Shown in pieces: positions 1-58,710 of a DNA stretch of 64,000 nucleotides (position 1 is its first letter; each line of letters opens with the position of its first letter). This DNA comes from Escherichia phage BF15, in sequence record MW822007.1; one strand, 5' to 3'. A model generated the notes under the pieces. It ran no database searches. It worked only from the letters and a program-made list of their open reading frames with translations, and had not been told where the DNA came from. Position numbers and translations under genes: made by a program.

Positions 1-1
1 T

Positions 2-205
2 AATGGCATGTATGGAAGGAAACATTCCGCTAAATCTATTCAGAAAATTAAAGATAACATGCCAGATAATTCAGGAGCTAATAACCCAGCTGCTAAACCT
101 ATAGAAGTAAATGGTGTTAAGTATAAATGCATGAAAGATGCTTCTAAAGCTACTGGATTATCAATGTACAAACTAAGAATACTTAGAAAAACAGTTAATT
201 TATAA
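2..205 (+). CDS. C-terminal fragment of an ORF continuing off the 5' window edge; homing-endonuclease-like DNA-binding tail (alternatively UvsW C-terminus by synteny)
   Basis: Open frame from position 2 with no upstream stop; GRKHSAKSIQKI resembles a NUMOD3 motif; NGVKYKCMKDASKATGLSMYKLRILRK looks like a C-terminal HTH. Confidence 0.4.
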   Translation, partial: NGMYGRKHSAKSIQKIKDNMPDNSGANNPAAKPIEVNGVKYKCMKDASKATGLSMYKLRILRKTVNL

Positions 206-230
206 GGGCTTCGGCCCTTTGGAGAAAAAG

Positions 231-461
231 ATGTTACTAGAATTTAAACAATTTCTTTATGAAGCTTCTATTGATGAATTTATGGGTAAAATTGCATCAT
301 GCCAAACATTAGAAGGTCTAGAAGAACTTGAAGCTTATTATAAGAAAAGAGTTAAAGAAACTGAATTAAAAGATACTGATGACATCTCTGTGAGAGATGC
401 TTTGGCAGGAAAAAGAGCTGAATTAGAAGATTCAGACGATGAAGTAGAAGAAAGCTTTTAA
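231..461 (+). CDS. uvsW.1: UvsW.1 small conserved protein (76 aa from internal Met of track ORF 219..461)
   Basis: MLLEFKQFLYEASIDEF... matches recalled T4 UvsW.1; lies upstream of the uvsY cluster as in T4. Confidence 0.65.
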   Translation: MLLEFKQFLYEASIDEFMGKIASCQTLEGLEELEAYYKKRVKETELKDTDDISVRDALAGKRAELEDSDDEVEESF

Positions 462-2492: not shown

Positions 2493-3242
2493 ATGGCAAA
2501 CATTATTCGTTGTAAATTACCAGATGGTGTTCATCGTTTTAAACCATTTACGGTAGAAGATTATCGAGATTTTTTGTTAGTTCGAAACGATATAGAACAT
2601 CGGTCACCACAAGAACAAAAAGAAATAATTGCTGATTTAATTGCCGATTATTTTGGAGACTATCCGAAGACTTGGCAACCATTTATATTTTTGCAGGTAT
2701 TTGTAGGGTCAATAGGTAAAACTAAAGTACCAGTCACATTTGTATGTCCAAAATGTAAAAAAGAAAAGACAGTTCCATTTGAAATATATCAAAAAGAACT
2801 AAAGGAACCTGTTTTTGATGTAGCTAATGTTAAAATTAAATTAAAGTTTCCTTCTGAGTTTTATGAAAATAAAGCAAAGATGATTACTGAAAATATTCAT
2901 TCTGTTCAAGTAGATGAAACATGGTATGATTGGAAGGAAATTAGTGAATCAAGTCAAATAGAACTTGTTGATGCCATCGAGATAGAAACATTAGAAAAAA
3001 TTCTCGATGCATTGAATCCTATTAATTTAACGCTACATATGTCCTGCTGTGATAAGTATGTAAAAAAATACACTGATATAGTAGATGTGTTTAAGCTATT
3101 AGTTAACCCAGATGAGATATTTACTTTTTATCAAATTAATCACACACTCGTAAAAAGTAATTATAGCTTAAATTCAATAATGAAAATGATTCCTGCCGAG
3201 CGCGGATTCGTATTAAAACTGATTGAGAAGGATAAACAATAA
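2493..3242 (+). CDS. 51: Baseplate hub assembly protein gp51
   Basis: 249 aa as in T4; synteny. Confidence 0.85.
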
Positions 3243-4417
3243 TGAGTATGTTGCAACGCCCAGGATATCCAAATCTCAGCGTTAAATTATTTGATAGCTA
3301 CGACGCTTGGAGTAATAATAGATTTGTTGAATTAGCTGCTACTATTACCACATTAACTATGCGGGATTCTCTTTATGGCCGAAATGAAGGAATGCTGCAG
3401 TTTTATGATTCTAAAAACATCCATACAAAAATGGATGGAAATGAAATAATTCAGATTTCTGTAGCTAATGCAAACGATATTAATAATGTTAAAACAAGAA
3501 TTTATGGATGTAAGCATTTTTCTGTGTCAGTAGATTCAAAGGGTGATAACATCATTGCTATTGAATTGGGAACTATTCATTCTATAGAAAATCTTAAATT
3601 TGGCAGACCGTTTTTCCCTGATGCAGGTGAATCTATAAAGGAAATGCTTGGCGTCATTTATCAAGACCGCACATTATTAACTCCAGCAATAAATGCTATA
3701 AATGCTTATGTTCCTGATATTCCGTGGACTAGTACATTTGAAAACTATTTGTCATATGTCAGAGAAGTTGCTCTAGCTGTAGGAAGTGACAAATTTGTAT
3801 TTGTATGGCAAGACATCATGGGAGTTAACATGATGGACTATGATATGATGATAAATCAAGAACCGTATCCAATGATTGTCGGTGAGCCATCTTTAATAGG
3901 TCAATTCATCCAAGAATTAAAATATCCATTGGCATATGATTTCGTTTGGTTGACTAAATCGAATCCTCACAAACGTGACCCAATGAAAAACGCTACTATC
4001 TATGCTCATTCATTTTTAGATTCTTCATTGCCAATGATTACTACAGGAAAGGGCGAAAACTCTATTGTAGTGTCAAGGTCAGGTGCTTATTCTGAAATGA
4101 CTTATAGGAATGGATATGAAGAAGCTATTCGTCTTCAAACTATGGCGCAATACGATGGCTATGCTAAATGTTCTACTGTCGGTAATTTTAACTTGACACC
4201 TGGCGTTAAAATTATTTTTAATGATAGTAAAAACCAATTTAAAACAGAATTTTACGTTGATGAAGTCATCCATGAATTATCCAATAATAATTCAGTAACT
4301 CATCTATATATGTTCACTAATGCAACGAAACTGGAAACAATAGACCCAGTTAAGGTTAAAAATGAATTTAAATCTGATACTACCACTGAAGAAAGTAGTT
4401 CTTCCAATAAGCAATAA
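3242..4417 (+). CDS. 27: Baseplate hub protein gp27
   Basis: 391 aa as in T4; synteny. Confidence 0.9.
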
Positions 4418-4895
4418 AGAAGTTTCTATTCCTAAAATGGGTCTTAAACATTATAACATTTTAAAAGATGTTAAAGGTCCTGATGAAAATTTAAAACTTC
4501 TTATTGATTCTATTTGTCCGAATTTATCACCGGCAGAAGTTGATTTCGTTTCTATTCATTTATTGGAATTTAATGGAAAGATTAAATCTCGTAAAGAAAT
4601 AGATGGTTATACTTATGACATTAATGATGTTTATGTATGCCAAAGATTGGAATTTCAATACCAAGGAAATACATTTTATTTTAGACCGCCTGGAAAATTT
4701 GAACAATTTTTAACTGTGAGCGATATGTTATCCAAATGCTTGCTTAAGGTCAATGATGAAGTTAAAGAAATTAATTTTCTTGAGATGCCAGCATTCGTTT
4801 TAAAATGGGCAAATGATATTTTTACAACTTTAGCAATTCCTGGCCCTAATGGTCCAATAACCGGAATTGGCAATATTATTGGATTATTTGAATGA
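4362..4895 (+). CDS. 28: Baseplate hub distal subunit gp28
   Basis: 177 aa as in T4; overlaps the 3' end of gene 27. Confidence 0.8.
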
Positions 4896-6664
4896 AAAAG
4901 CCACAAGAAATGCAAACGATGCGTAGAAAAGTTATTTCAGATAATAAACCAACACAGGAAGCGGCTAAATCCGCTTCCAACACTTTATCTGGACTTAATG
5001 ATATATCTACGAAATTGGATGATGCTCAAGCTGCTTCTGAATTAATTGCTCAAACTGTCGAAGAAAAATCGAATGAAATAGTTGGAGCAATTGATAATGT
5101 AGAAAGCGCAGTGAGTGATACTACTGCTGGTTCTGAGTTAATTGCTGAAACTGTCGAAATTGGCAACAATATTAATAAAGAAATCGGTGAATCACTCGGG
5201 AGCAAATTAGATAAATTAACAAGTTTATTAGAGCAAAAAATTCAGACAGCTGGAATTCAACAAACAGGAACCAGTTTAGCCACTGTTGAAAGCGCTATTC
5301 CTGTTAAAGTTGTTGAGGATGATACAGCTGAATCTGTGGGTCCTTTATTACCGGCTCCTGAAGCAGTTAATAATGATCCTGATGCTGATTTTTTCCCTAC
5401 CCCTCAGCCAGTTGAACCTAAACAAGAATCGCCAGAAGAAAAACAGAAAAAAGACGCATTTAACTTAAAATTATCTCAAGCTTTAGATAAATTAACAAAG
5501 ACTGTTGATTTTGGATTTAAGAAATCCATTTCAATTACTGATAAAATATCAAGCATGTTATTTAAGTACACCGTCAGTGCTGCTATTGAAGCTGCTAAAA
5601 TGACTGCAATGATATTGGCTGTTGTTGTTGGAATAGACCTGTTGATGGTTCATTTTAAATATTGGTCAGATAAATTTTCACAGGCTTGGGATTTGTTTAG
5701 TACAGACTTTACTAAATTCTCTAGCGAAACCGGAACATGGGGTCCTTTATTACAGAGCATCTTTGGTTCTATCGATGAAATTAAAAAATTCTGGGAAGCG
5801 GGAGATTGGGGTGGTTTGACGGTAGCTATTGTAGAAGGGCTTGGAAAGGTTCTTTATAATTTAGGTGAACTTATTCAGCTTGGAATGGCTAAATTATCTG
5901 CGGCAATTCTTCGAGTTATTCCTGGTATGAAGGATACCGCTGATGATGTAGAAGGAAGAGCACTAGAAAATTTCCAAAATACTACAAATGCTTCTCTTAG
6001 CAAAGAAGACCAAGAAAAAGTTGCAAATTATCAATATAAAAGAATGAATGGAGAACTTGGTCCGATAGCAAAAGGACTAGACAAAATTGCGAACTGGAAA
6101 ACTCGCGCATCTAACTGGATTCGTGGTGTTGATAATAAAGAAGCACTAACGACTGATGAAGAGAGAGAAGAGGAAGAAGAAAAATTAAAGCAACTTTCTC
6201 CGGAGGAAGCTAAAATTGCTTTAATGAAAGCTAATGAAGCTCGTGCTGCTATGAATCGTTTTGATGAATACGCTAATTCGGCTGATATGAGTAAAGATTC
6301 AACAGTTAAATCAGTTGAAGCTGCCTATGAAGACCTTAAAAAACGGATGGATGACCCGGATTTAAATAATTCACCGGCAGTTAAAAAAGAACTTGCTGCT
6401 AGATTTTCTAAAATTGATGCTACTTATCAAGAACTAAAGAAAAATCAACCTAATGCCAAACCTGAAACTTCTGCTAAATCGCCAGAAGCAAAACAAGTCC
6501 AGGTAATAGAAAAGAACAAAGCACAGCAAGCTCCTGTTCAACAAGCATCTCCTTCGATCAATAATACTAATAATGTTATTAAGAAAAATACTGTCGTTCA
6601 TAATATGACACCTGTTACGAGTACAACTGCTCCCGGTGTATTTGACGCGACTGGAGTTAATTAA
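4892..6664 (+). CDS. 29: Baseplate hub / tail tube length determinant gp29
   Basis: 590 aa as in T4; coiled-coil-rich; ATGA overlap with gene 28. Confidence 0.9.
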   Translation: MKKPQEMQTMRRKVISDNKPTQEAAKSASNTLSGLNDISTKLDDAQAASELIAQTVEEKSNEIVGAIDNVESAVSDTTAGSELIAETVEIGNNINKEIGESLGSKLDKLTSLLEQKIQTAGIQQTGTSLATVESAIPVKVVEDDTAESVGPLLPAPEAVNNDPDADFFPTPQPVEPKQESPEEKQKKDAFNLKLSQALDKLTKTVDFGFKKSISITDKISSMLFKYTVSAAIEAAKMTAMILAVVVGIDLLMVHFKYWSDKFSQAWDLFSTDFTKFSSETGTWGPLLQSIFGSIDEIKKFWEAGDWGGLTVAIVEGLGKVLYNLGELIQLGMAKLSAAILRVIPGMKDTADDVEGRALENFQNTTNASLSKEDQEKVANYQYKRMNGELGPIAKGLDKIANWKTRASNWIRGVDNKEALTTDEEREEEEEKLKQLSPEEAKIALMKANEARAAMNRFDEYANSADMSKDSTVKSVEAAYEDLKKRMDDPDLNNSPAVKKELAARFSKIDATYQELKKNQPNAKPETSAKSPEAKQVQVIEKNKAQQAPVQQASPSINNTNNVIKKNTVVHNMTPVTSTTAPGVFDATGVN

Positions 6665-9112: not shown

Positions 9113-11169
9113 TACATCTTGAACTTTTTAGACATTCCATTGATGTTAACCAAAGAAGCCAAGATTTGAGAAACTTCGTTTTCCTCTTCTTTTGATTCTT
9201 CTACAAGGAATTGATTAAACCCAGCCATTGGACGAACTTCACCAGTTTCCATTAGATGGTCGCCATCATATACCGATTCTTCTAATTGTTCAGAAGGAGG
9301 AACGATTGTGCCTTCGATTAGATACTTGTTATAAGCAGTTTCTTTCATCATGTACGTACTCACTTTATTAATCTTCAGCAAAATTCCACGTGGTAAAATA
9401 ACTTCAGCTTCTGATGGAAATCCTGATAAATGTCCTGGAACGATAACTTTGATTCGCTCAGCTCCTTTAATTACCATACCCACGCTAGTTTCAGCATCTT
9501 CATTGGCATACGCAGAATGACTACCCATATGCATTAAATCTTCAGCGTCAACAGAACCTTCTCCTTCACCAGAAAATACTGCACCGGAATCATCTAGAGC
9601 CATATAGTTTTTACCATACTCACCGAAGATATTTGGTTTAAGCGATGTGGATACGAAGTTCTTGAAGTAGAACATTTTATTTTCAATATTATGACGTAAA
9701 GTTTTAAAGGTAACTTCTTGTCCACGGTAAAGTGTAGTTCCTGGAGGAAGAACTGATCCTTTGGCAAAGGCAGAATCCATTGTCTCGATGTGTTTAATAG
9801 CTCGTTCCATATATTCTTCACGGGTAGAATCCGGTTTACCTAAAAGGAATGAGTTCATTTCAACATATGAATCTGCACAATAATCTTCAATTACATCAGA
9901 CTCAGCCTGAGTTAATCCTTTTGGAGTTACTTCAGTACTTGCATATTCATACGCTTGAGAAGCAGACTCATTAATCAATTTATAAACGCCATTCATGACA
10001 AATTGAACAATAGCTACCTTTTCATCTGGTGTGGCTTTAGAACCTTTAACTAAATCATTGACAATTTTCTTAATAACATCAAAGCTATTAGAAATATTAA
10101 TGTCAGCAAGATCACTTAAAATTTTATCAGTTTTATAATCAAAAAATTCTTTATTCTTTAAATATTCTTGAGAACCTTGATATGATATATCGCTCTGTAA
10201 CTTGATAGATGGATCACGTAAACGCGCATGAGCCAATGCAATATGATTTCGGAAGCTTTCTAATTCATAATCACTAGATTTAAAACGGGAAGCACTCCTC
10301 ATACCACCGATAGCTCCTTTGCTGAAGTTTGAACCAACCTGAATAACGCCAGAGTTCATTGGTCCTTCTGCTTTATATACCGGAACTTTAGATTCAAACT
10401 CTTGATATTTCTTAGCAGCGAAGCTATCACCCTGAAGTGAAGCATCGACAGTAGAGTATTGAGCTTGTGCTGCTAATCGACGACTAATTTTAGTTTTCTG
10501 AATAACAGCTTGATCCGTGCGCTTATCATTTTCTAAAGCAATAGAAGCAGCAACAGCGACAGCTTTAGGAACAGCATTACCTGTTTTAACGTCTACATAA
10601 ACATCACCAACCTTTGATTCAACTTTTGTGAATAACTCAGTTGAAATAGGAGGTACACCTGGAATGTCTTCTAAATTAGCATTTTTACGGTAAACCATAA
10701 TATATGCGTACTTTTTATCGTAATCCCAGATTTCCTTTAAAAGAACATATCGACCTGCTCCTTTAGTACGTACTAAACGGTCGGCAATAACTTGCATTTG
10801 ACGAGCTGCACCATTTGTTTTACTCTTTAGTACGCGGAATAAGCATGCGTCAATTTTATACTGTTTCATTGTTTGAAGAGCAGTATCAAAAACGGCATTA
10901 ATGACGCCAATTGGATTTCCACCTAAGTTTTTAAGTTTAACTAATGATAGTTTCTCATTAACACCTATCATTACGATATGCATCATTTTATCGCCTGGCT
11001 TAACGTTTTTATTTGTATCACCGCCAGAGGTGTATGTACAAAATCTAAATCCAGGAAGCACACTTTCTTCGCCTGCTTGAATAGCAAAAATTTGAGGTAT
11101 TTTATGCTTAGGATTTAAGTTAACAACCGGCGCCGAAGCGCCGTCAAATAATTCTGTAATAAGTTCCAT
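9112..11169 (-). CDS. Alt-like ADP-ribosyltransferase, tandem paralog (685 aa)
   Basis: Shares the MELITELFD N-terminus, CTYTSGGDTN, MHIV and FYFKNFVSTSL...EAEVILPRG (R-S-E ART motifs) with the adjacent alt gene. Confidence 0.8.
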   Translation of the reverse strand: MELITELFDGASAPVVNLNPKHKIPQIFAIQAGEESVLPGFRFCTYTSGGDTNKNVKPGDKMMHIVMIGVNEKLSLVKLKNLGGNPIGVINAVFDTALQTMKQYKIDACLFRVLKSKTNGAARQMQVIADRLVRTKGAGRYVLLKEIWDYDKKYAYIMVYRKNANLEDIPGVPPISTELFTKVESKVGDVYVDVKTGNAVPKAVAVAASIALENDKRTDQAVIQKTKISRRLAAQAQYSTVDASLQGDSFAAKKYQEFESKVPVYKAEGPMNSGVIQVGSNFSKGAIGGMRSASRFKSSDYELESFRNHIALAHARLRDPSIKLQSDISYQGSQEYLKNKEFFDYKTDKILSDLADINISNSFDVIKKIVNDLVKGSKATPDEKVAIVQFVMNGVYKLINESASQAYEYASTEVTPKGLTQAESDVIEDYCADSYVEMNSFLLGKPDSTREEYMERAIKHIETMDSAFAKGSVLPPGTTLYRGQEVTFKTLRHNIENKMFYFKNFVSTSLKPNIFGEYGKNYMALDDSGAVFSGEGEGSVDAEDLMHMGSHSAYANEDAETSVGMVIKGAERIKVIVPGHLSGFPSEAEVILPRGILLKINKVSTYMMKETAYNKYLIEGTIVPPSEQLEESVYDGDHLMETGEVRPMAGFNQFLVEESKEEENEVSQILASLVNINGMSKKFKM

Positions 11170-11172
11170 GAT

Positions 11173-13266
11173 TTATCCTTGAACGAACTTGTAAGGCATG
11201 TTTGCAATATCTATGCAAGATGCAATAATTCCAAGAGATGATTCTACTTTTTGTTTAACATTTGATGAAACAAATGATGCAAAGTCAACTCTGTCTTCTA
11301 TTTCAATATCACCTGTCATTGCAACTACTTCGCCGGTTTCCATTAGACGGTCACCGTCATAAATTACTGATTCGGTGAGTTCTTCCGTAGTCATAACTTC
11401 AGCTTGAATGAGTTTTGTATTATTAGATGTTGTTCCGTCATTATTAGAAGCATCAGTTATTTTATTAACTTTGACCATCAATCCGCGTGGTAGAATAACT
11501 TCAGCTTCTGTTGCTATTCCGAGACTTCCTGGATATACAACATTAACTTTATGAGCTCCATCAATTGCCCATCCTATTTGAACTTTAACGTATTCAGGAT
11601 TTTCTTTATACGCTCTTATTTCGTTTGGATTAATAGTTATTCCTTCTTCATTTTTATCAACTGTCAATTCATTACGAGCTTCTGGTTCTAAAAGACCAAT
11701 ACCAGCATGTGTAATTCCAAAACGTCCAAAAATGATAGGAGTTAAAGAAGTAGATACAAAATTTCTGAAATAGAACACTTTATTTTTAACTAGTGCTTCG
11801 TATATAGGAGCAGTCATGCTTTGAGCACGATAAACTGTAATGCCTTCTGGTATACGGTCACCATTTTCAAAAGCTGAATCTAAATTATTTATCGCAGATT
11901 CAATTTCTTTTTCACTCATTACATCATATCGTTCTGGATTGTAGCGGCCTAAAAGAAGATTATTGATGTCAGTATATCCTGATCCACAATACTCTCTAAT
12001 GCCGCGCTTTTGCGATGGAGTATATTTAGAACCATCACGGGCAATAGTAATATCAATCATTGGACCTGCACCAATTCCAGAAAAGCTATAAATCATTCGT
12101 TTGAGGAATTTAGTTTTTGCTGCGTTCCAGGAATTTTTAGTTATTTCTTCCCAGACTTCATCTGGCTGCCCTTTACGAGTTTTATTATGTTTATCAAGCC
12201 AATTATCTTTATATTCTTCAAAGAATTTATTAACAGCTGCTGCGTATTTCTCTAAACATTTTATTGAAGTAGTTGGTTCATTTTTGATCGCGTTAAAAAT
12301 TACATCTTTAATTTTTTCAGAAACTTCATCAACCTCACTTTTTGGAAAGAATTTATAGTCATAGTGAAGTTCATCTGCGGTTCCTTCGGCAATGATTTTT
12401 GCTGCCTTAGTTTTAGAAGCTAATGAATTAATTCCAAGCTTCATTTCTTCTGCTTCGGGAATTAAAGGAGCAGTAGCAGGTTTATTGAAATTAGCTGCAG
12501 TAGATTCATACTTCTGGAATAATTCGCTTTCAAATCTAGAAGATTCTAATGATTGACTTTGCGCAATTGCTCTACGGGAAATTTTAACTTTAACAATAAC
12601 AGCTTGGTCAGAACGTTTATCGTTTTCTTGCGCAATAGATGCTGCAATTGCCTCATTTTTAGTTACTTGAGCTCCAGTATCTTTATTGATATAAACATCG
12701 CCGACTTTCGATTCAACTTTAGTAAAGAGCTCGGTACTAATTTCTGGAACTCCTGGAATGTCTTCTAATGATACATTTTTGCGATGTATAAGAATATATG
12801 CATACTTTTTATCGTAATCCCAGAGTTCCTTAAGAAGGACGTATCTGCCACCTGAACGACTACGGATAAGTCTATCAGCAATAACTTGAATTTGTCGAGC
12901 TTGACCAGCAGTTTTAGACTTAAGAATACGAAGCATGCAGGCATCAATTTTATACTGACGCATCGTTTGCATCGCAACAGTAAAAACTGAATTGATATAA
13001 TTAATTGGGCTTGGACCGAGACCTTTTAATTTAGCAATTGAACCTTTAGCAGTTAATGTAAAAGGAACAATATGCATCATTTTATCGCCCATTTTTAAAT
13101 CACGGTTAGTATCACCTCCAGATGTATAGGTACATAAACGAAAGCCTGGTTGTTCAATTGCGTCATCGACATGAACTGAAAAAATTTGTGGTATTTTCTT
13201 CTTTGGATTTAAGTTTGTAATCGGAAGAGTAGTATCTTCGTCAAATAATTCTGTAATAAGTTCCAT
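11173..13266 (-). CDS. alt: Alt ADP-ribosyltransferase (capsid-packaged)
   Basis: 697 aa from second Met; MELITELFDEDTTLPITNLNPKKKIPQIF N-terminus; STS and EAEVILPRG motifs; adjacent to gene 30. Confidence 0.85.
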   Translation of the reverse strand: MELITELFDEDTTLPITNLNPKKKIPQIFSVHVDDAIEQPGFRLCTYTSGGDTNRDLKMGDKMMHIVPFTLTAKGSIAKLKGLGPSPINYINSVFTVAMQTMRQYKIDACMLRILKSKTAGQARQIQVIADRLIRSRSGGRYVLLKELWDYDKKYAYILIHRKNVSLEDIPGVPEISTELFTKVESKVGDVYINKDTGAQVTKNEAIAASIAQENDKRSDQAVIVKVKISRRAIAQSQSLESSRFESELFQKYESTAANFNKPATAPLIPEAEEMKLGINSLASKTKAAKIIAEGTADELHYDYKFFPKSEVDEVSEKIKDVIFNAIKNEPTTSIKCLEKYAAAVNKFFEEYKDNWLDKHNKTRKGQPDEVWEEITKNSWNAAKTKFLKRMIYSFSGIGAGPMIDITIARDGSKYTPSQKRGIREYCGSGYTDINNLLLGRYNPERYDVMSEKEIESAINNLDSAFENGDRIPEGITVYRAQSMTAPIYEALVKNKVFYFRNFVSTSLTPIIFGRFGITHAGIGLLEPEARNELTVDKNEEGITINPNEIRAYKENPEYVKVQIGWAIDGAHKVNVVYPGSLGIATEAEVILPRGLMVKVNKITDASNNDGTTSNNTKLIQAEVMTTEELTESVIYDGDRLMETGEVVAMTGDIEIEDRVDFASFVSSNVKQKVESSLGIIASCIDIANMPYKFVQG

Positions 13267-21907: not shown

Positions 21908-23107
<1,200 letters not shown>

Positions 23108-23111
<4 letters not shown>

Positions 23112-26157: not shown

Positions 26158-27336
26158 TTAAAAATATTTTTTAAAACTCATCATAACTTTATCATCAACA
26201 TCATTATCAATCTGTGCTACAAGGTAAGATGATAGTTCTACTTCTTGCGGCGCGGATTGAACATTATCAGAATTAAGGTATTCACGAATCCAAGGATATG
26301 GATGTTTAACCGGAGCATCGGTAATTGGGCATGGAAGACCGCACTGTTTCATACGAGATACAGTTAAGTAATCAATAAAGCTCCACATGCTATTTGTATT
26401 TAATCCAGGAACATCACCATCTTTAAATAAATGAACTGCCCAATCTTTTTCTTGGCGGTTAACTTCCATGAAAATATCAACTGCTTCTTGTTCACACTCT
26501 TGGGCAATTTTAACCCATTCATCACCATCAGTGCCAAGCTGAAGTTGACGAATAATATATTGGGTGCCTTTAAGGTGAAGCTGCTCATCACGAGCAATGA
26601 ACTTCATAATCTTGGCATTACCTTCCATGATTTCCATGTTCTTATGGAAGTTAAAGGTACATGCGAAAGATACATAAAAACGAATAGCTTCCAATGCGTT
26701 GATTACATGAAGGCAAAGATAAAGAGATTTCATTAGTGCTCGTTTAGCTTCGGCTTCTTGTTTAATAGCTCGATTTAAACGAAAATCAGCATCAGGAGAT
26801 TCTTTAGCTAGTTCTACAAATTCTTTAGCATTTTCCCATTCACGGGTCTTCTTAAGAACATCATCGTAATAGCGACCAATGGACTCAGCGCGTTTCATAA
26901 TATCTTCATCTAATACAATCTCATCAAATACCTTTGATGGGTCAGTATAAAGATTTCGCATGATATGAGTATATGAACGACTGTGAATAGTTTCACTAAA
27001 AGTCCATGTAGCAACCCATGTATCAAGGCTTGGGTCTGAAATTAATGACATAAGTACTGCAGACGGTGCACGACCCTGAATGCTATCTAGAAGTGATTGA
27101 TACTTCAGGTTATTAGTAAAAATATCTTGCTGATACTGAGGAAGCTTGTTAAATTGTGCAGCATCCATCATCAAGTTTACTTCTTCAGGGCGCCAGAAAA
27201 ATGATAATTGCTTTTCGGTTAAATCTTCAAAAACTTTATGGCGTTGAATATCATAACGCGCAATACCAAGACCTGAACCGAAGAACATAGGTTCTTTTAA
27301 AACATCAACTGGATTTGTATTAAAAACTGTGCTCAT
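26158..27336 (-). CDS. nrdB: Ribonucleotide reductase small subunit, uninterrupted
   Basis: 392 aa contiguous ORF; no intron or intron-encoded ORF. Confidence 0.95.
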   Translation of the reverse strand: MSTVFNTNPVDVLKEPMFFGSGLGIARYDIQRHKVFEDLTEKQLSFFWRPEEVNLMMDAAQFNKLPQYQQDIFTNNLKYQSLLDSIQGRAPSAVLMSLISDPSLDTWVATWTFSETIHSRSYTHIMRNLYTDPSKVFDEIVLDEDIMKRAESIGRYYDDVLKKTREWENAKEFVELAKESPDADFRLNRAIKQEAEAKRALMKSLYLCLHVINALEAIRFYVSFACTFNFHKNMEIMEGNAKIMKFIARDEQLHLKGTQYIIRQLQLGTDGDEWVKIAQECEQEAVDIFMEVNRQEKDWAVHLFKDGDVPGLNTNSMWSFIDYLTVSRMKQCGLPCPITDAPVKHPYPWIREYLNSDNVQSAPQEVELSSYLVAQIDNDVDDKVMMSFKKYF

Positions 27337-27387
27337 AAATTTTCCGCTTAGTTAATAGATAGTGACTCGTCCGTGAGTCAAATTATA

Positions 27388-29652
27388 TCATAATTTACAG
27401 GATGAACAATCTTCAGCTTTTGGAGTTTCTATTTCATAATCATCAGTACCAGAACCATCACGGGTATTATGATAATAGAAATTTTTTCCGCCAAAATACC
27501 AAAAGTACAAAAGGTCATCAATCATTACAGACATTGGAACCTTTCCTTTTGGAAAAATCTGCGGGTCATAATATGTATTCGCTGAAGCTGATTGACACAC
27601 CCATTTCAGCATAATAGCTACCTGCGTAAGATAAGGTTTATTACCTTTCTTAGCTAATTTCCACGTATAATCATAGAGGTCTATGTTATGCTCAATATTG
27701 GGCACGACTTGATTAAAGGAACCCTCTTTTGATTCTTTAACAGAGACTGGTCCACGTGGAGGCTCGATACCGTTTGTACTGTTAGAAACTTGGGAAGATG
27801 ACTCACATGGCATAAGTGCTGATAATGTGCTATTACGGATGCCAAAGAGCTTAAGGTCTTCCCGCAGCGCCGACCAGTCACAAACGTATTTTGGAGCTGC
27901 GATTTGGTCAATCTTTTTATTGTACCAGTCGATAGGTAATTCGCCTCGAGACCAACGAGTGTCTGAATAATATTCGCAAGGTCCTTTTTCTTTGGCGAGC
28001 TTAATGGATGCTTTAATGAGTCCATACTGTAATCTCTCAAATAGTTCATGTGTTAAATCGTTAGCATCTTCATAAGAAGCAAAGTTACTTGCCAGCCAAG
28101 CTGCATAGTTAGTAACACCTACGCCAAGGTTTCGACGTTTTTTAGCTTTTTCTGCTTCAGGAACTGGATATCCTTGGTAGTCCAAAAGATTATCAAGAGC
28201 GCGAACTTGGACTTCTGCCAATTCATTAATTTTATCTTGGTCTTGCCAATCGAAGTTATCCAACACAAATGCAGACAATGTACACAATCCAATTTCGGCA
28301 TCAGGACTATTCACGTCATTTGTTGGAATAGCAATTTCACAGCACAAGTTACTCTGGCGAATAGGTGCCTTTTCACGAATAAACGGAGTATAGTTATTCG
28401 TATTATCAATGAACTGTACATAAATCCTTGCTGTTCCTGATCGTTCAGTCATGAGCAATTCAAACAGTTCACGGGCTTTAATACGCTTTTTACGAATATT
28501 AGGGTCTTTTTCTGCGGCTTCATATAATTCACGGAAACGGTCTTGGTCTTTAAAATAAGAATAATAAAGCTCGCCACCCATTTCATGTGGACTAAACAAA
28601 GTAATGTAATCGTTCTTTCCAAAACGTTCCATCATCAAATCATTCAGCTGGACACCATAATCCATATGACGGATACGGTTTTCTTCTACGCCTTTGTTAT
28701 TTTTCAAAACGAGAAGATTTTCAACTTCCAAATGCCAAATAGGATAATAAGCAGTAGCAGCGCCGCCACGAATTCCGCCCTGTGAACATGATTTAACAGC
28801 AGTCTGAAAATGTTTCCAAAAAGGAATAACACCAGTATGACGCACTTCACCTGTGCCAATCTTAGAACCTTCGGCACGAATCATACCAACGTTAATGCCG
28901 ATTCCAGCTCGTTTGGAGATATATTCAACAATTGAAGCAGAAGCTTTGTTGATAGACTTCAGCGAATCACCTGCCTCAATAACAACGCATGAACTAAACT
29001 GCCGAGTTGGAGTACGACAACCAGCCATAATAGGAGTTGGCAATGAAATCTGTCGAGTAGATACTGCTTCATAAAAACGAATAACATGTTTTAATCTATC
29101 AACAGGTTCATCTTGATGCAATGCCATTCCAATAGTCATAAATGCAAACTGTGGAGTTTCATAAATTTGACCAGTGGTTTTATCTTTAACTAGATATTTT
29201 TCTTTTAACTGCATCGCCCCGGAATAAGTAAATTCCATATCCCGCTCGTGCTTAATTTTTGATTCTAAAAATGTAATTTCTTCTGCTGAATATTTTGACA
29301 ACAGTTCAGGGTCGTATTTACCTTCATTTACGCAGTAAGAAATATGGTCAATAAATGAACGTGGTTCATATTGCCCGTAAACATGCTTACGAAGAGCGAA
29401 CATTAAACAGCGCGCAGCTACATATTGATAATCAGGCTCTTCAACTGAAATAGAATTCGCAGCAGCCTTAATTACAATGGTTTGAATGTCATCAGTTGTC
29501 ATTCCATCACGGAGATATGATTTAATATTTTCATATAATTCATAAGGATCTACAGATGTTCCTTCAGCTGCCCAAGATAAAACTTTAATAATTTTTTGTG
29601 GGTCAAAGCTTTGAGAAACACCGCTACTTTTGATAACATTAATTAATTGCAT
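27388..29652 (-). CDS. nrdA: Ribonucleotide reductase large subunit
   Basis: 754 aa class I RNR alpha subunit. Confidence 0.95.
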   Translation of the reverse strand: MQLINVIKSSGVSQSFDPQKIIKVLSWAAEGTSVDPYELYENIKSYLRDGMTTDDIQTIVIKAAANSISVEEPDYQYVAARCLMFALRKHVYGQYEPRSFIDHISYCVNEGKYDPELLSKYSAEEITFLESKIKHERDMEFTYSGAMQLKEKYLVKDKTTGQIYETPQFAFMTIGMALHQDEPVDRLKHVIRFYEAVSTRQISLPTPIMAGCRTPTRQFSSCVVIEAGDSLKSINKASASIVEYISKRAGIGINVGMIRAEGSKIGTGEVRHTGVIPFWKHFQTAVKSCSQGGIRGGAATAYYPIWHLEVENLLVLKNNKGVEENRIRHMDYGVQLNDLMMERFGKNDYITLFSPHEMGGELYYSYFKDQDRFRELYEAAEKDPNIRKKRIKARELFELLMTERSGTARIYVQFIDNTNNYTPFIREKAPIRQSNLCCEIAIPTNDVNSPDAEIGLCTLSAFVLDNFDWQDQDKINELAEVQVRALDNLLDYQGYPVPEAEKAKKRRNLGVGVTNYAAWLASNFASYEDANDLTHELFERLQYGLIKASIKLAKEKGPCEYYSDTRWSRGELPIDWYNKKIDQIAAPKYVCDWSALREDLKLFGIRNSTLSALMPCESSSQVSNSTNGIEPPRGPVSVKESKEGSFNQVVPNIEHNIDLYDYTWKLAKKGNKPYLTQVAIMLKWVCQSASANTYYDPQIFPKGKVPMSVMIDDLLYFWYFGGKNFYYHNTRDGSGTDDYEIETPKAEDCSSCKL

Positions 29653-30209: not shown

Positions 30210-31070
30210 TTACACCGCCATTTTTCCTTTAATAGGAGGGTGTGATTCGTAACCTTTAAGAACGAAATCTTTAGGCCTGAGTTTAAGAACATATTCCAAT
30301 TGTTCTTTAGTAGAAAGATGGCGGAATTTATAAGGCAATCCGCCTATTACCAGTTCACAAAGCTCTTTAGGTTCACGACGTAAAATTTCTTTACATTGTT
30401 CCACGTGATTCATATAGATATGAGTATTACCGCCAGAAAATATCAAATCTCCAGGAATAAGATTACACATCTTAGCTACAATATGAACTAATGCAGCATA
30501 TGATGCAATATTAAATGGAAGACCGAGGAAAACATCTACCGAACGTTGATACCACTGCAAATCCAAATAGCCATTACGCACATTAAACTGATAGAACATA
30601 TGACAAGGCGGTAATGCCATATATTTAAGTTCAGCTGGATTCCACGCAGAAACAATTTGACGCCTATCATTTGGTAGTTTTTTAATACGATCAACAACTT
30701 CTACAATTTGGTCTACACCGCCAAAATCACGCCACTGTTTTCCATAAATTGGACCAAGTTCACCACTATGATATCCTAAATCTTTTGCTTGATTTTCGTA
30801 ATTTTCATCCCAGACTGTTTTGCCTTGAATTAATGAATCATGTTGAATTAATCGCAAATCATTGACATTTGTGCTTCCTGATAAAAACCATATTAGCTCA
30901 GCGATGCAAGCTTTCCAAGCGAGCTTCTTAGTCGTTACTGCAGGAAAACCTTTAGTTAAATCCCAGCGTAATTTAGTACCGAACAAAGCAATTGTTCCTG
31001 TGCCTGTTCGGTCATCGGTTTCATAGCCGTTTTCAAAAATGTCTTTAATTAAATCTTGGTATTGTTTCAT
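30210..31070 (-). CDS. td: Thymidylate synthase, uninterrupted
   Basis: 286 aa contiguous; PPCHMFYQF active-site region; no intron. Confidence 0.95.
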   Translation of the reverse strand: MKQYQDLIKDIFENGYETDDRTGTGTIALFGTKLRWDLTKGFPAVTTKKLAWKACIAELIWFLSGSTNVNDLRLIQHDSLIQGKTVWDENYENQAKDLGYHSGELGPIYGKQWRDFGGVDQIVEVVDRIKKLPNDRRQIVSAWNPAELKYMALPPCHMFYQFNVRNGYLDLQWYQRSVDVFLGLPFNIASYAALVHIVAKMCNLIPGDLIFSGGNTHIYMNHVEQCKEILRREPKELCELVIGGLPYKFRHLSTKEQLEYVLKLRPKDFVLKGYESHPPIKGKMAV

Positions 31071-31115: not shown

Positions 31116-31475
31116 TCAATACGGTTTAGCATCAAATTTTCTTTCGATTTCAGGAGTGAAATATAATTCTTTACCACGCTTGGAAAAGCGACCAATAATA
31201 TGATAATTATTCTCATCAAACGTGATATTGCCAATATCCATAGCTTTCAACCAAATATCGATATTTCTATCCAGCTTTATATCAAAATTCCAATACGGAG
31301 AACTATTACCGAAAATACTGCAAGCGGATTCAGTGAAACAACTGCTATAAATCTTGTCTTTAGGAACTACTAATTGATAGACACCTTTAATAAACTGAGG
31401 ACCCTGCCATTTTGGTTGTTTCGCGTCTTTTTCCAATAGAATAGGGTAATAATTAAAGCTCATATTTTCCGCCAC
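31116..31475 (-). CDS. Hypothetical protein inserted between frd and td
   Basis: 119-aa track ORF with no function I can assign. Confidence 0.55.
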   Translation of the reverse strand: MAENMSFNYYPILLEKDAKQPKWQGPQFIKGVYQLVVPKDKIYSSCFTESACSIFGNSSPYWNFDIKLDRNIDIWLKAMDIGNITFDENNYHIIGRFSKRGKELYFTPEIERKFDAKPY

Positions 31476-31483
31476 GCGTTATT

Positions 31484-32310
<827 letters not shown>

Positions 32311-32318
32311 ATTATCTC

Positions 32319-32654
32319 CTAATATAAAGGATCGGGAACATATCCACTGGCTTTAATCATTTTAATTAACGTTAACATTCCTTTATTAACTGCTCGTGAG
32401 ATTTCATCAAAAACTTCATCACTAAAAAGTTCTAACACACCCTTCTGAACTTTTAATTTACATCCAACGATTTCGTCATCGCCTATAATAAATTCATTTC
32501 CGCCAATTCCACCGAAAAACTTAATTACACCAGTTAACTGTCTTCCACGAGAATATGGGTCGTGTGATAAAGTAATATGAGTCACCCCAGGTACAGTTTT
32601 AAATTGGCAGCGGATGTTTACTTGGGCAATTCCAGTTACGTGAATGTCAGACAT
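32319..32654 (-). CDS. Hypothetical protein
   Basis: 111-aa track ORF. Confidence 0.5.
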   Translation of the reverse strand: MSDIHVTGIAQVNIRCQFKTVPGVTHITLSHDPYSRGRQLTGVIKFFGGIGGNEFIIGDDEIVGCKLKVQKGVLELFSDEVFDEISRAVNKGMLTLIKMIKASGYVPDPLY

Positions 32655-34651: not shown

Positions 34652-34718
34652 TTTTATTTCCTTTTTAATTTAATTAACAGTTGGTGCTATGACGATGTAT
34701 GACCTCATAGCTGGTCAG
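34652..34718 (-). promoter_or_regulatory. Gene 32 translational operator: pseudoknot plus AU-rich unstructured gp32 binding region
   Basis: Minus strand GCUGACCAGCUAUGAGGUCAUACAUCGUCAUAGCAC can form an H-type pseudoknot, then UUAAUUAAAUUAAAAAGGAAAUAAAAAUG. Confidence 0.6.
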
Positions 34719-34750
34719 TGAGATAATTATAATCTATTTATAATAAGCAA

Positions 34751-42740: not shown

Positions 42741-45700
42741 ATGGCTACTTTAAAACAAATACAATTTAAAAGAAGCAAAACTGCAGGAGCACGTCCTGCC
42801 GCTTCAGTATTAGCCGAAGGTGAATTGGCTATAAACTTAAAAGACCGTGTACTTTTTACTAAAGATGACCAAGGAAATATTATCGATCTGGGTTTTGCTA
42901 AAGGCGGTAGTATTGACGGGAATGTTATTCATACAGGCAATTATAACCAAACTGGCGATTATACTTTAAATGGCACCTTCACTCAGACTGGTAATTTTAA
43001 TTTAACTGGTATTGCTCGAGTAACTCGCGATATTATTGCCGCTGGGCAGATTATGACTGAAGGCGGAGAACTTATTACAAAAAGTTCAGGTACAGCGCAT
43101 GTTCGTTTTTTCGATAACAATAGTCGCGAACGTGGAATCATTTATGCCCCGGCTAATGATGGTTTAACTACACAAGTACTTAATATCAGGGTTCAAGACT
43201 ACGCCGCTGGTGATGAAAGCACCTATGCATTTTCGGGCAGTGGCCTATTTACTTCACCTGAAGTATCAGCATGGAAATCTATTTCGTCTCCACAAATTCT
43301 GACCGATAAAGTTATTACAAATGGGAAGAAGACAGGCGATTATGATATATCTTCATTAGCAAATAATAATTCTGATACAGATAAAAACTATTTGCGCATT
43401 GTACGTACCGACCCAGCGGCCGCAATGCTCCATGAAATTTGCGAAAATAACGGCATCAGTTGGTATTCCGGTTCAACCCCTACTGATTACATGTTGTCTT
43501 TTGCTTATTCAGGTGGTTTTCAAGCTGGGCATTCGATTGCAGTAGGTATGGAATCAGGGCCTATAACATATTCAGCCTTAGGTAAAGGTTCTATTGCTCT
43601 TGGCGATAATGACACCGGGCTAAAATGGCATCAGGATGGATATTTTTTTACGGTAAGCAACGGTACAAAAACTTTCCTTTCTGGTCCGGCGGAAACCACT
43701 AGCCTTAGAAAAATGGTTATGGGTTATTCTGTAAATGGTACTGATTTGACTACTCCTCCAACTGAAAATTATGCTCTTGCAACTGTAGTTACTTACCATG
43801 ATAATAACGCGTATGGTGACGGTCAGACTCTTTTAGGATATTATCAAGGTGGTAATTACCACCACTATTTCCGTGGTAAAGGCACTACAAATATTAACAC
43901 TGCAGGCGGATTGTTAGTTACTCCAGGCAATATTGACGTTATTGGTGGTTCTGTTAATATCGATGGTAGAAATAATTCTTCTACGCTGATGTTTAGAGGT
44001 AACACAACAGGATACAGCTCAGTTGATAATATGGATATTAAAGTTTGGGGTAATACTTTTGTTGATCCAAGCGAAGGCACCCGTAAAAATATCATGGAAA
44101 TTTCTGATGCAACTAGTTGGATGAGCTATATTCAAAGACTTACAACAGGTGAAGTAGAAATGAACGTTAACGGTTCATTTGAATCATCTGGTGTTACTGC
44201 TGGAAATAGAGGAGTTCACACAACAGGCGAAATTTCATCTGGAGCAGTGAATGCGCTTCGCATTTGGAACGCAGATTATGGAGCTATTTTTAGACGTTCA
44301 GAAGGTAGTCTTCATATTATTCCAACTGCTTATGGTGAAGGTAAACATGGTGATATCGGTCCACTTCGCCCGTTTAGTATGGCTTTAGATACTGGTAAAG
44401 TTACTATTCCAGATTTACAATCAAGTTACAATACGTTTGCAGCAAACGGTTATATTAAATTTACTGGTCACGGCGCAGGCGCGGGCGGTTATGATATTCA
44501 ATATGTTCAAGCAGCTCCTGTTTTCCAAGAAATCGATGATGATGCTATAAGCAAATATTATCCTATTGTTAAACAGAAGTTTTTAAACGGTAAAGCCGTT
44601 TGGTCTTTAGGTACTGAAATTAATTCGGGTACATTTGTTTTACACCATATCAAAGAAGATGGATCACAAGGACATACATCTCGTTTTAATCAAGACGGTA
44701 CGGTTAATTTCCCTGATAATGTTCAGGTTGGTGGTGGTGAAGCTACTATTGCTCGCAACGGTAACATCTGGTCTGATATCTGGAAAACGTTTACTTCAGC
44801 AGGAGACACCACAAATATTCGCGATGCAATAGCTACCCGTGTTTCTAAAGAAGGCGACACGATGACCGGCACTCTTTGGATTAATAAAGATGCTGCTGGA
44901 ATAGTTCTTAATCCTCCTTTGGCCAGTGATTCATCATTTATTCGTTCCGATACGGCCGGGGTAAATAATTGGTATATTGGTAAAGGCGGTGCCGACAATG
45001 GTCTAGGTTTTTACAGTTATGTTACACAAGGCGGTGTATATATAACAAATAACGGAGAAATATCACTTTCTCCTCAAGGCCAAGGAACATTTAATTTTAA
45101 TAGAGACCGCCTCCATATAAACGGTACACAATGGACCGCACACCAGGGAGGTGGTTGGGGAAATCAATGGAATCAAGAAGCACCGGTATTTGTAGATTTT
45201 GGTAATGTTGGTAATGATAGTTATTATCCTATTATTAAAGGAAAATCCGGTATTACTAATGAAGGATACGTATCTGGTGTAGATTTTGGTATGCGACGCA
45301 TTACTAATACATGGGCACAAGGTATTATTCGTGTAGGTAATCAGGAAAATGGTTATGACCCACAAGCTGTATATGAATTCCATCATAACGGTACTTTTTA
45401 TGCTCCAAGCTTACTTAAGAGCAGTAGAGTATCAGCTGGTGGTGGTGACCCAGCATGGGGCAGTCCTTGTATTGTATTAGGTGACAATGATACCGGATTT
45501 CTTTGGGAAGCAGATGGTATTTTCAACGCATATGCAAACGGCCAAGGCGTATTCAGTTTTAGAGCTGGTCTCGCACAAACGTTCGGTAACGTTAACTTCC
45601 ACTGTAACGCCGGTATGTATGTTCGTGATAACATTGATGTTAACGATGTTTATATCCGTTCTGATATTCGTTGTAAGTCAGAAATTAAGCTTATTAAGAA

Positions 45701-45980
45701 CGCTCAAGAGAAATCTAAACTCTTAGGCGGCTATACTTATCTGCTTAAAAACCCTGTTACAGACGAAGTTAAACCGTCTGCAGGTTTAATTGCTCAGGAA
45801 GTTCAAGAAGTATTACCTGAACTTGTTTCTGAAGATAAAGAGACCGGCTTACTTCGTTTAAACTATAACGGTATTATCGGTTTAAATACTGCTACTATCA
45901 ACGAGCATACTGACGAAATCAAGGAATTGAAATCTGAAATTGCTGAGTTGAAAGCATTAATTAAATCATTGATAAAATAA
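42741..45980 (+). CDS. 37: Long tail fibre distal subunit gp37 with C-terminal intramolecular chaperone domain
   Basis: 1079 aa; the C-terminal ~106 aa from SDIRCKSEIK...GLIAQEVQEVLPELV... plus terminal coiled coil resemble S74-type auto-cleaving chaperone domains. Confidence 0.9.
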   Translation: MATLKQIQFKRSKTAGARPAASVLAEGELAINLKDRVLFTKDDQGNIIDLGFAKGGSIDGNVIHTGNYNQTGDYTLNGTFTQTGNFNLTGIARVTRDIIAAGQIMTEGGELITKSSGTAHVRFFDNNSRERGIIYAPANDGLTTQVLNIRVQDYAAGDESTYAFSGSGLFTSPEVSAWKSISSPQILTDKVITNGKKTGDYDISSLANNNSDTDKNYLRIVRTDPAAAMLHEICENNGISWYSGSTPTDYMLSFAYSGGFQAGHSIAVGMESGPITYSALGKGSIALGDNDTGLKWHQDGYFFTVSNGTKTFLSGPAETTSLRKMVMGYSVNGTDLTTPPTENYALATVVTYHDNNAYGDGQTLLGYYQGGNYHHYFRGKGTTNINTAGGLLVTPGNIDVIGGSVNIDGRNNSSTLMFRGNTTGYSSVDNMDIKVWGNTFVDPSEGTRKNIMEISDATSWMSYIQRLTTGEVEMNVNGSFESSGVTAGNRGVHTTGEISSGAVNALRIWNADYGAIFRRSEGSLHIIPTAYGEGKHGDIGPLRPFSMALDTGKVTIPDLQSSYNTFAANGYIKFTGHGAGAGGYDIQYVQAAPVFQEIDDDAISKYYPIVKQKFLNGKAVWSLGTEINSGTFVLHHIKEDGSQGHTSRFNQDGTVNFPDNVQVGGGEATIARNGNIWSDIWKTFTSAGDTTNIRDAIATRVSKEGDTMTGTLWINKDAAGIVLNPPLASDSSFIRSDTAGVNNWYIGKGGADNGLGFYSYVTQGGVYITNNGEISLSPQGQGTFNFNRDRLHINGTQWTAHQGGGWGNQWNQEAPVFVDFGNVGNDSYYPIIKGKSGITNEGYVSGVDFGMRRITNTWAQGIIRVGNQENGYDPQAVYEFHHNGTFYAPSLLKSSRVSAGGGDPAWGSPCIVLGDNDTGFLWEADGIFNAYANGQGVFSFRAGLAQTFGNVNFHCNAGMYVRDNIDVNDVYIRSDIRCKSEIKLIKNAQEKSKLLGGYTYLLKNPVTDEVKPSAGLIAQEVQEVLPELVSEDKETGLLRLNYNGIIGLNTATINEHTDEIKELKSEIAELKALIKSLIK

Positions 45981-46010
45981 TAAAAGGGCCTTCGGGCCCT
46001 GGAGGTTTAT

Positions 46011-46790
46011 ATGGCAGTAGTAGGAATCCCTGGTTGGATTGGGACTTCAGCCGTCGCTGAAACAGGCCAACGTTGGATGACAGCAGCTTCTAGAGAATTG
46101 CGTCTTGGTAACCCATCTTGGATGTCCCAATTCGCAGGCCGCTCAAGAGAAATTATTCACACACTTGGAGCAGACCATAACTTCAATGGTCAATGGTTCC
46201 GAGATAGATGTTTTGAGGCAGGTAGTGCACCTATAGTGTTTAATATTACAGGTGATTTAGTATCATATTCTAAAGATGTTCCTTTATTTTTCATGTATGG
46301 AGATACACCGAATGAATATGTTCAGTTGAATATACACGGCGTAACGATGTATGGACGTGGCGGTAATGGCGGTAGCAATAGTCCTGGCTCAGCTGGAGGT
46401 CATTGTATTCAAAACGATATTGGTGGGAGACTAAGAATTAATAATGGTGGAGCTATTGCAGGCGGCGGTGGCGGCGGTGGCGGCGGTAACAGGGGTAGAC
46501 TAGTATTTGGTGGCGGCGGTGGTCGTCCATTTGGTGCTGGTGGGTCTTCCTCTCATATGAGTGCTGGTGCAACCGCTGGCACCATTTACGCTCCGGGTGC
46601 AGGATCTGTCGGTGAGGGGTCTCTTAGTGCATATACAGGCGGGTCTGGTGGTGAAGTAGGTTCCGCGGGAGGTAGATGTAATACTCACGGTGCCGGTACA
46701 GAATATAACGGCGGAGCTGCTGGTTATGCTGTTATAGGGTCTGCTCCAACGTGGATAAATGTTGGAGCAATATATGGTCCAAGAGTATAA
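46011..46790 (+). CDS. 38: Receptor-recognising adhesin gp38 (T2-type, glycine-rich)
   Basis: 259 aa; multiple poly-Gly blocks ([21 protein letters not shown]) alternating with variable segments. Confidence 0.85.
46461..46487 (+). repeat. Coding trinucleotide repeat (GGCGGCGGT)x3 inside gene 38
   Basis: Direct tandem repeat encoding a Gly9 run. Confidence 0.7.
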
Positions 46791-46820
46791 TTTGAATAAA
46801 TATCCTTAAAAGGAGGGTCT

Positions 46821-58178: not shown

Positions 58179-58710
58179 TACTGGCTCATCCATTCTTTAC
58201 GAAGGTCAGCGTTATCTCCCATGAGCATTTCAAAAAGCTCTTTCCAGTTCTCAGGAAGTTTAACAACATCATATACTGGGTTTTGAATCATCTCACGATA
58301 TTCAGATTTTTCCAAAGAGCCAAGTCCCTTAATATAACGGATGCTATGTTTAGGTAGAGCATCTTTAGCACTCTCATATTCAGCGACTGTATAAAACCAT
58401 TCTTGTTTTTTACCGACCTGAGCGATGATTACAGGAGTTTTGACAAAGCGAATTCGTCCTTGCTCAAACAATTCTGGCCAATTACTAAAAAATCCGAGCA
58501 GAGAAGGATAAATAGAACCTAATCCAATAATCTCTTAATTATGAGGTATTTCTATAGATAGCCCGAAGGCTATCCATCGTGATCTGCGTCTGTCATAATA
58601 GCGACATTCGCATAGTTCATTGAAGAGGATTTAATAGAACGACGAACATTGTTCTGCAATTTATATTTTTTCATATCAACGCTAGAAGAATCAATTTTTA
58701 CAAATTTCAT
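58178..58710 (-). CDS. 60: Topoisomerase II small subunit gp60, made by translational bypass of a 50-nt coding gap
   Basis: 46-codon segment MKFVKIDSS...TDADHDG ends GGA-UAG; second segment LGSIYPSLLGFFSNWPELFEQGRIRF... resumes after a matching GGA; the track splits it into 58570..58761 and 58178..58471. Confidence 0.9.
58523..58572 (-). other. 50-nt non-decoded coding gap of gene 60 (take-off GGA, UAG stop, take-off hairpin, landing GGA)
   Basis: Minus strand GAU-GGA-UAG-CCUUCGGGCUAUCUAUAGAAAUACCUCAUAAUUAAGAGAUUAUUG-GA-UUA; UUCG tetraloop hairpin at take-off. Confidence 0.9.

Follow-up and report, generated by a model that had tools for sequence, protein, structure and literature searches.

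The mob and seg genes of phage T4 have been described as promoter-less cassettes with overlapping start and stop codons (PMC2988022). Among these endonucleases, T4 MobE is encoded in the nrdA/nrdB spacer, and SegE, a GIY-YIG enzyme that has been characterised experimentally, is encoded between inh and uvsW and cleaves the uvsW gene of related phages. HNH endonuclease genes are also known from within essential or important coding sequence whose function is kept, as in the T4 MobA/gene 60 cassette and in Aeh1, where mobE lies in nrdA (PMC2988022). I-TevI, by comparison, is a GIY-YIG enzyme encoded in the T4 td intron.

Here we analysed a stretch of 64,000 nucleotides from Escherichia phage BF15 (MW822007.1), referred to below as the window. 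Its downstream genes follow the order of the T4 annotation (uvsY.-2, uvsY.-1, uvsY, 25, 26, 51, 27, 28, 29), which places the window in a T4-like phage, and the records that match it best belong to Tequatrovirus. At its 5′ edge the window cuts through a reading frame that very probably belongs to a free-standing Mob-type HNH homing endonuclease of such a phage, inserted at the 3′ end of uvsW and upstream of uvsW.1. The gene is already known and annotated in RefSeq and GenBank, under the names 'homing endonuclease', 'mobD' and 'putative mobile endonuclease E', in T6, PST, W143 and other phages.

A putative endonuclease gene at the window edge

In frame 2 of the plus strand the first stop after the window edge is the TAA at 203–205, and translation (window 2–205) gives 67 residues, NGMYGRKHSAKSIQKIKDNMPDNSGANNPAAKPIEVNGVKYKCMKDASKATGLSMYKLRILRKTVNL, followed by the stop. 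The preliminary description had picked out a NUMOD3-like motif followed by a helix-turn-helix-like tail at the end of this frame. The observation holds: the strings that it quoted are present, GRKHSAKSIQKIKDNM at 14–61 and NGVKYKCMKDASKATGLSMYKLRILRK at 110–190. Taken alone, the 67-residue fragment gives only modest statistical support: NUMOD3 reaches 12.4 bits in Pfam, a low score because the window edge cuts the motif, I-TevI_DNA-bd (PF20987) reaches 17.5 bits against a 27-bit cut-off, and the PHROG 314 'homing endonuclease' profile matches with E 1.2e-5 (Table 1).

What we take as decisive for a predicted endonuclease is identity to complete genes. The tail is identical at 67 of 67 residues to the C-terminus of the 230-aa protein gp215 of T6 and, again at 67 of 67, to that of SH-2_7 from Shigella phage SH-2. 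At the DNA level the window and SH-2 show 0 differences over 205 nt, and SH-1 is 100% identical to window bases 1–218. The gene order in T6 (NC_054907) and SH-2 runs from a segE-like gene through uvsW (502 aa) and a 693-bp ORF to uvsW.1; a separate 230-aa ORF stands between uvsW and uvsW.1 in these two and in 46 other records, just where an inserted endonuclease gene had been proposed from the window alone. Read against these genes, the first ORF of the window is very probably the last 67 codons of a homing endonuclease gene between uvsW and uvsW.1, with the HNH domain and the 5′ junction of the cassette upstream of the window, as deduced from T6, SH-1 and SH-2.

The preliminary description had also allowed that it was misreading a C-terminus of UvsW, a doubt that arose because the endonuclease ORF ends on the native uvsW residues KTVNL and stop. 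That suspicion was correct for these last five codons and the stop at 188–205, which are the same as in T4 UvsW, and for nothing else in the tail. The two share 18 nt and no more, and in the comparison with the T4 UvsW C-terminus nothing further is collinear. As a variant C-terminus of the helicase, the tail would moreover have to continue upstream into UvsW, but in genomes with the identical tail the upstream extension aligns with T4 MobE, MobD, MobB and MobC. All 48 tail-bearing relatives end UvsW at its own TGA 5′ of the tail, and for the other 62 residues the matches are to DNA-binding modules of endonucleases rather than to UvsW. The helicase reading is already refuted for all sequenced relatives, and we give it practically no chance for the window. 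In annotation, the first ORF should be entered as a putative truncated Mob-type HNH homing endonuclease and not as a UvsW fragment.

Table 1 Features of the uvsW/uvsW.1 locus and related sites (window positions unless stated)
Feature	Position	Strand	Basis or remark
3′ part of the 689-bp endonuclease cassette	1..187	+	Frame 2; residues 164–225 of the 230-aa protein
Predicted second half of the final NUMOD3 repeat (MYGRKHSAKSIQKI)	8..49	+	Pfam NUMOD3, fragment residues 3–16, E 0.15
Predicted I-TevI-like DNA-binding tail, β-hairpin and helix-turn-helix (IEVNGVKYKCMKDASKATGLSMYKLRILRK)	86..193	+	Pfam PF20987, E 0.0039
Native uvsW 3′ end, AAA ACA GTT AAT TTA TAA (KTVNL-stop)	188..205	+	~450 endonuclease-free records match from base 188
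GGGC-TTCG-GCCC tetraloop hairpin (GGGCTTCGGCCC), from stop codon to uvsW.1	206..217	+	Identical in T4
uvsW.1, 76 aa	231..461	+	Pfam UvsW-1 PF11637, E 1.7e-30; GGAG Shine-Dalgarno at 221–224
SP18 repeat (ATTAAACAGGTGGAAAT)	2484–2504 and 3176–3196 of SP18 segment		Both proteins end …KQVEI-stop
T4 segments absent	26660–26663, 27336–27392, 30521–30522, 34714–34750		blastn map versus T4

Domain architecture of the full-length protein

Domains were tested on the complete proteins of T6 and SH-2, which end in the same 67 residues as the window ORF. The HMM search that the preliminary description had suggested returned NUMOD3 (PF07460) in two stretches at 51 bits, above its 20.4-bit cut-off, together with sub-threshold matches to HNH (16.7 bits, cut-off 21.4) and to I-TevI_DNA-bd (PF20987; 14.7 bits, cut-off 27); there was no Pfam match to a GIY-YIG domain. 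The PHROG 655 'homing endonuclease' profile matched with E 4e-61. Residues 1–103 align with T4 MobE at 52% identity (blastp, E 7e-32), and the other T4 matches of the full protein are MobD (59%), MobB (44%) and MobC (43%). The N-terminal domain, homologous to Mob proteins, contains the HNH catalytic motif (His-His, Asn, His) in the full-length relatives, and H27, H28, N42, H51 and H55 are kept in 45 homologues.

The C-terminal part resembles I-TevI. Residues 158–222 are 32% identical to that enzyme, and phmmer aligns residues 157–216 with its DNA-binding domain (PDB 1i3j, E 0.0058). An AlphaFold2 model (pLDDT 88.7) folds residues 197–227 into a β-hairpin (E197–199, E202–204) and a helix-turn-helix (H207–214, H218–227). 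The top PDB match in Foldseek is likewise 1i3j (probability 1.00, E 0.087, target-normalised TM 0.46), and HNH domains stand lower in the list. The predicted layout thus begins with an HNH domain at the N-terminus, continues through a helical linker that contains the NUMOD3 repeats and ends in an I-TevI-like helix-turn-helix, as in a Mob-type HNH nuclease fused to an I-TevI-like DNA-binding module.

From the tail, the preliminary description had named GIY-YIG and HNH enzymes together; the HNH half of that proposal holds, on the MobE-like N-terminus, and the GIY-YIG half does not. A GIY-YIG endonuclease of the Seg or I-TevI type, or one encoded by a group I intron, is brought to mind by records that annotate a 'group I intron endonuclease', by a weak match to TIGR01453 (29.9 bits, cut-off 56) and by the tail itself, which in both structure and sequence is closest to the DNA-binding domain of the GIY-YIG enzyme I-TevI. 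Every full-length copy, however, has an HNH, Mob-like N-terminus, and phages that lack the endonuclease also have uvsW and uvsW.1 as two separate, complete ORFs. An Rfam scan of the T6 locus (5200–6600 of segment) found neither a group I intron nor any other plausible RNA family at E ≤ 1, which argues that the endonuclease is not intron-encoded. We therefore regard an intron-encoded or GIY-YIG enzyme as very improbable.

Anatomy of the insertion

T6, whose site is filled, was aligned with T4 (re-sequenced clone) and phage OES_C-1, whose sites are empty. The difference is a discrete block of 689 bp, a cassette that phages either have or lack at this one fixed position. T4 UvsW ends in NYVMKTVNL; the insert follows codon 497, between NYVM and KTVNL, and its 3′ end (…CTTAGA) lies at window position 187. 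Its 5′ end, AAA GAG GTT AAA CTT TGA, provides five replacement uvsW codons and a stop, so that UvsW now ends in KEVKL. The insert also carries a GAGG ribosome-binding site 7 nt 5′ of the endonuclease start, a TTG that overlaps the uvsW stop (CTTTGA); the homologous codon is ATG in the Jiaodavirus orthologue and in the T4 Mob proteins. At the opposite junction the native uvsW end closes the endonuclease ORF in frame, supplying its last five codons and stop. This duplicated and recoded uvsW end, borrowed by the ORF, is the sole mildly new detail of the locus.

Tentatively, and with considerable doubt, we suggest that the cassette preserves its original insertion footprint, in which the 18 nt of the final five uvsW codons and stop were duplicated, and that a neighbouring run of eight silent changes is the recognition site. 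One copy of the uvsW end would have been recoded to hold the endonuclease ribosome-binding site and overlapping TTG start, and the other kept as the endonuclease C-terminus and stop. Gaprivervirus SP18 has 17 nt directly and perfectly repeated at the uvsW end and the endonuclease end (Table 1); in Tequatrovirus, 11 of the 18 nt are identical between the two copies. Were the duplication a general signature, it would show how such genes first enter a coding 3′ end with the host gene surviving, and, if the duplication reading is true, the adjoining purely silent changes would mark the site that the enzyme recognises. The SP18 annotation begins the endonuclease at a later ATG (2597) and labels it hypothetical.

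The flank of uvsW next to the insert is divergent. T4 and T6 uvsW are 97–100% identical to about nt 1340, 62–65% identical at nt 1351–1440 and ~80% identical thereafter, and the divergent zone has two layers. The layer that adjoins the insert comprises 22 uvsW codons, in which endonuclease-carrying and endonuclease-free alleles are distinguished by 8 silent changes (codons 480–496) and 0 replacement changes. This tract is a possible co-conversion tract or self-immunity determinant; it could also be imported donor sequence and not an immunity determinant. The other layer is a hypervariable patch at uvsW codons 461–472. A link between this patch and the endonuclease was rejected, as the T6-type patch also occurs where the endonuclease is absent, in phages OES_C-1, OES_C-2, OES_C-3 and LH2.

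The uvsW genes of these four phages (OES_C-1, 1400–1700 of segment) are mosaics, in which the patch (VVSKSKTSSKKYS) is of T6 type and the last ~90 nt and stop are of T4 type. Such mosaics could reflect a recombination breakpoint between patch and insertion site, or could be the trace of a lost cassette.

Distribution and signs of mobility

Bases 1–1400 of the window match 744 phage records. For bases 1–218 there are 498 matching records, of which 48 span the tail; the ~450 others match mainly from base 188 and are annotated uvsW. A query of 866 bp that joins the uvsW 3′ flank to the whole gene is found at full length and ungapped in exactly 48 records. Among close relatives, this free-standing gene is present or absent at a single position. 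The records closest to the window over 188–25000 (megablast, 25 kb), at 98% identity, are without the endonuclease gene, so that its presence is uncoupled from the phage backbone; no public record is >98% identical to the window backbone over 25 kb. Gaprivervirus SP18 and Jiaodavirus PSE-D1 have orthologues of 57–69% identity at this site between uvsW and uvsW.1, and in both phages the orthologue overlaps the uvsW stop. The patchy distribution on unrelated backbones fits ongoing mobility.

Conservation among these copies bears on whether the gene is instead a decaying or domesticated remnant, of homing-endonuclease ancestry but with nuclease mobility lost, and now passive or co-opted, for example as a DNA-binding protein. 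The window shows the DNA-binding tail only, and T4 itself has a defective I-TevIII. The database entry of UFV-AREG1 holds one product of 146 aa, cut short of both the catalytic and the helix-turn-helix ends, and some copies may accordingly be decaying or mis-sequenced; the UFV-AREG1 paper says nothing on the uvsW-site endonuclease, and a full-text literature search found no functional, cleavage or homing study of it and no report of activity. Several observations pull the other way. All 48 records align over the 866 bp as one piece with net length unchanged, the catalytic residues persist across the 45 homologues, and the T6 and SH-2 copies differ at 18 synonymous and 5 non-synonymous codons, a ratio that appears consistent with purifying selection; the patchy spread, too, suits a mobile gene. 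We consider a remnant unlikely.

Proposed mechanism

For a Mob-type HNH homing endonuclease at this site, knowledge of the T4 seg and mob genes (reviewed in PMC2988022) suggests the following course. The gene would be co-transcribed with uvsW, and its weak TTG start would allow low-level translation by coupling or re-initiation. In a mixed infection the NUMOD3 helices and helix-turn-helix would attach the enzyme to a long asymmetric target where uvsW meets uvsW.1 in endonuclease-free phages, and the HNH domain would nick or cut this target. Through recombination-dependent repair, the cut genome would then acquire a copy of the cassette together with the uvsW markers that flank it. Alleles that carry the endonuclease would themselves be protected by the insertion, which splits the site, and possibly also by the silent substitutions just upstream.

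Over bases 1–720, a promoter scan found nothing exceeding shuffled expectation. The exact late-promoter motif TATAAATA was not found within 1–461, where TATAAATG at 122–129 is a near-match only. The hairpin at 206–217 folds, in a 66-nt context that is no more stable than shuffles (z −1.08), and is not a canonical terminator, the terminator scan of 1–720 having returned none.

uvsW.1 and the wider window

The true start of uvsW.1 is likely to be the ATG at 231 and not the TTG at 219 taken from the ORF list. The T4 and SH-2 annotations begin the gene at the homologous ATG, and the annotation of the window should do the same. The separation of uvsW and uvsW.1 was reported by Nolan et al. 2006 for all T4-like genomes that they examined. 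That the endonuclease had caused this split was considered and is not supported: an exhaustive phmmer search with UvsW.1 found no fused helicase, and its matches at E<1e-10 are only short free-standing proteins of 57–145 aa. The T4 RefSeq record NC_000866 annotates uvsW as one 1764-bp ORF that includes uvsW.1 (2678–4441 of segment), the product of a known sequencing error (TTAATA versus TTATAA in re-sequenced T4). Synteny arguments that rest on NC_000866 can therefore mislead.

Several other parts of the window differ from T4. On the minus strand, 58691–59509 holds a full-length ORF for a mobA-like HNH homing endonuclease of 272 aa, with a GTG start and a 23-nt overlap with the end of gene 39; its product shares 92% identity with the 37-aa 'defective mobA' fragment of the T4 RefSeq and 57% with T4 MobE over 76 aa. 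In a blastn map against T4 the window is without the nrdB intron and I-TevIII, mobE and nrdB.1, the td intron and I-TevI, and segG (Table 1), so that in this region the uvsW-site endonuclease is present and four T4 endonucleases are absent. Small ORFs of 100, 119, 81 and 111 aa on the minus strand (22809–23111, 31116–31475, 32065–32654) fall in segments without a T4 counterpart; ORFs of these sizes lie beside pseT, between td and frd, and after frd, and tblastn found no match between them and the T4 endonuclease set.

In gene 38 and the distal part of gene 37 (42907–46796), blastn matched nothing in T4; the tail-fibre tip and adhesin are presumably of a different type, as in T2/T6-like phages. 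Compared with T4, the alt region (9131–12460) has been rearranged or duplicated; its matches to alt and alt.-1/-2 overlap and are of low identity (69–79%), and relatives annotate two Alt-like ADP-ribosyltransferases there.

Comparison with known endonucleases

The locus refines the understanding of mobile endonucleases in T-even phages and changes nothing in it. It is a clean natural example of known behaviour, in which an endonuclease gene sits in the last codons of a host gene, repairs the end of that gene and couples its own translation to it.

One of the closest known counterparts is T4 MobE. The N-terminal HNH regions are 52% identical over 103 aa and share the MNYxKIY start, and both genes have a patchy presence among T-even phages. 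Each is a free-standing cassette apparently without a promoter of its own, which has been shown for mobE and seems probable at the uvsW site, and each has a start codon that overlaps the stop codon of the gene before it (PMC2988022). Unlike mobE, the uvsW-site gene is inserted at the uvsW 3′ end, starts with TTG where mobE has ATG, and ends on the last five codons of its host gene; the C-terminal half, with NUMOD3 and an I-TevI-like helix-turn-helix, is unrelated to that of MobE, and activity of the uvsW-site protein is putative. It is this half that recalls I-TevI, and the part in the window aligns with the minor-groove helix and helix-turn-helix of 1i3j. In contrast to I-TevI, the uvsW-site enzyme is of HNH type and its gene free-standing, and its Pfam score for the DNA-binding family lies under the cut-off.

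Like the T4 MobA/gene 60 cassette and Aeh1 MobE in nrdA, the uvsW-site gene is an HNH gene placed inside the coding region of a host gene that is essential or important and that keeps its function (PMC2988022). It differs from both in that only the last five uvsW codons are displaced and replaced, for which reason uvsW is not split into two functional pieces. With T4 SegE it has in common that it is free-standing and exploits the same host gene, from the opposite side of uvsW and with a predicted HNH nuclease of putative activity in place of a characterised GIY-YIG enzyme. In T6 and SH-2, where a segE-like gene lies 5′ of uvsW and the HNH gene 3′ of it, uvsW is bordered by two different selfish nucleases.
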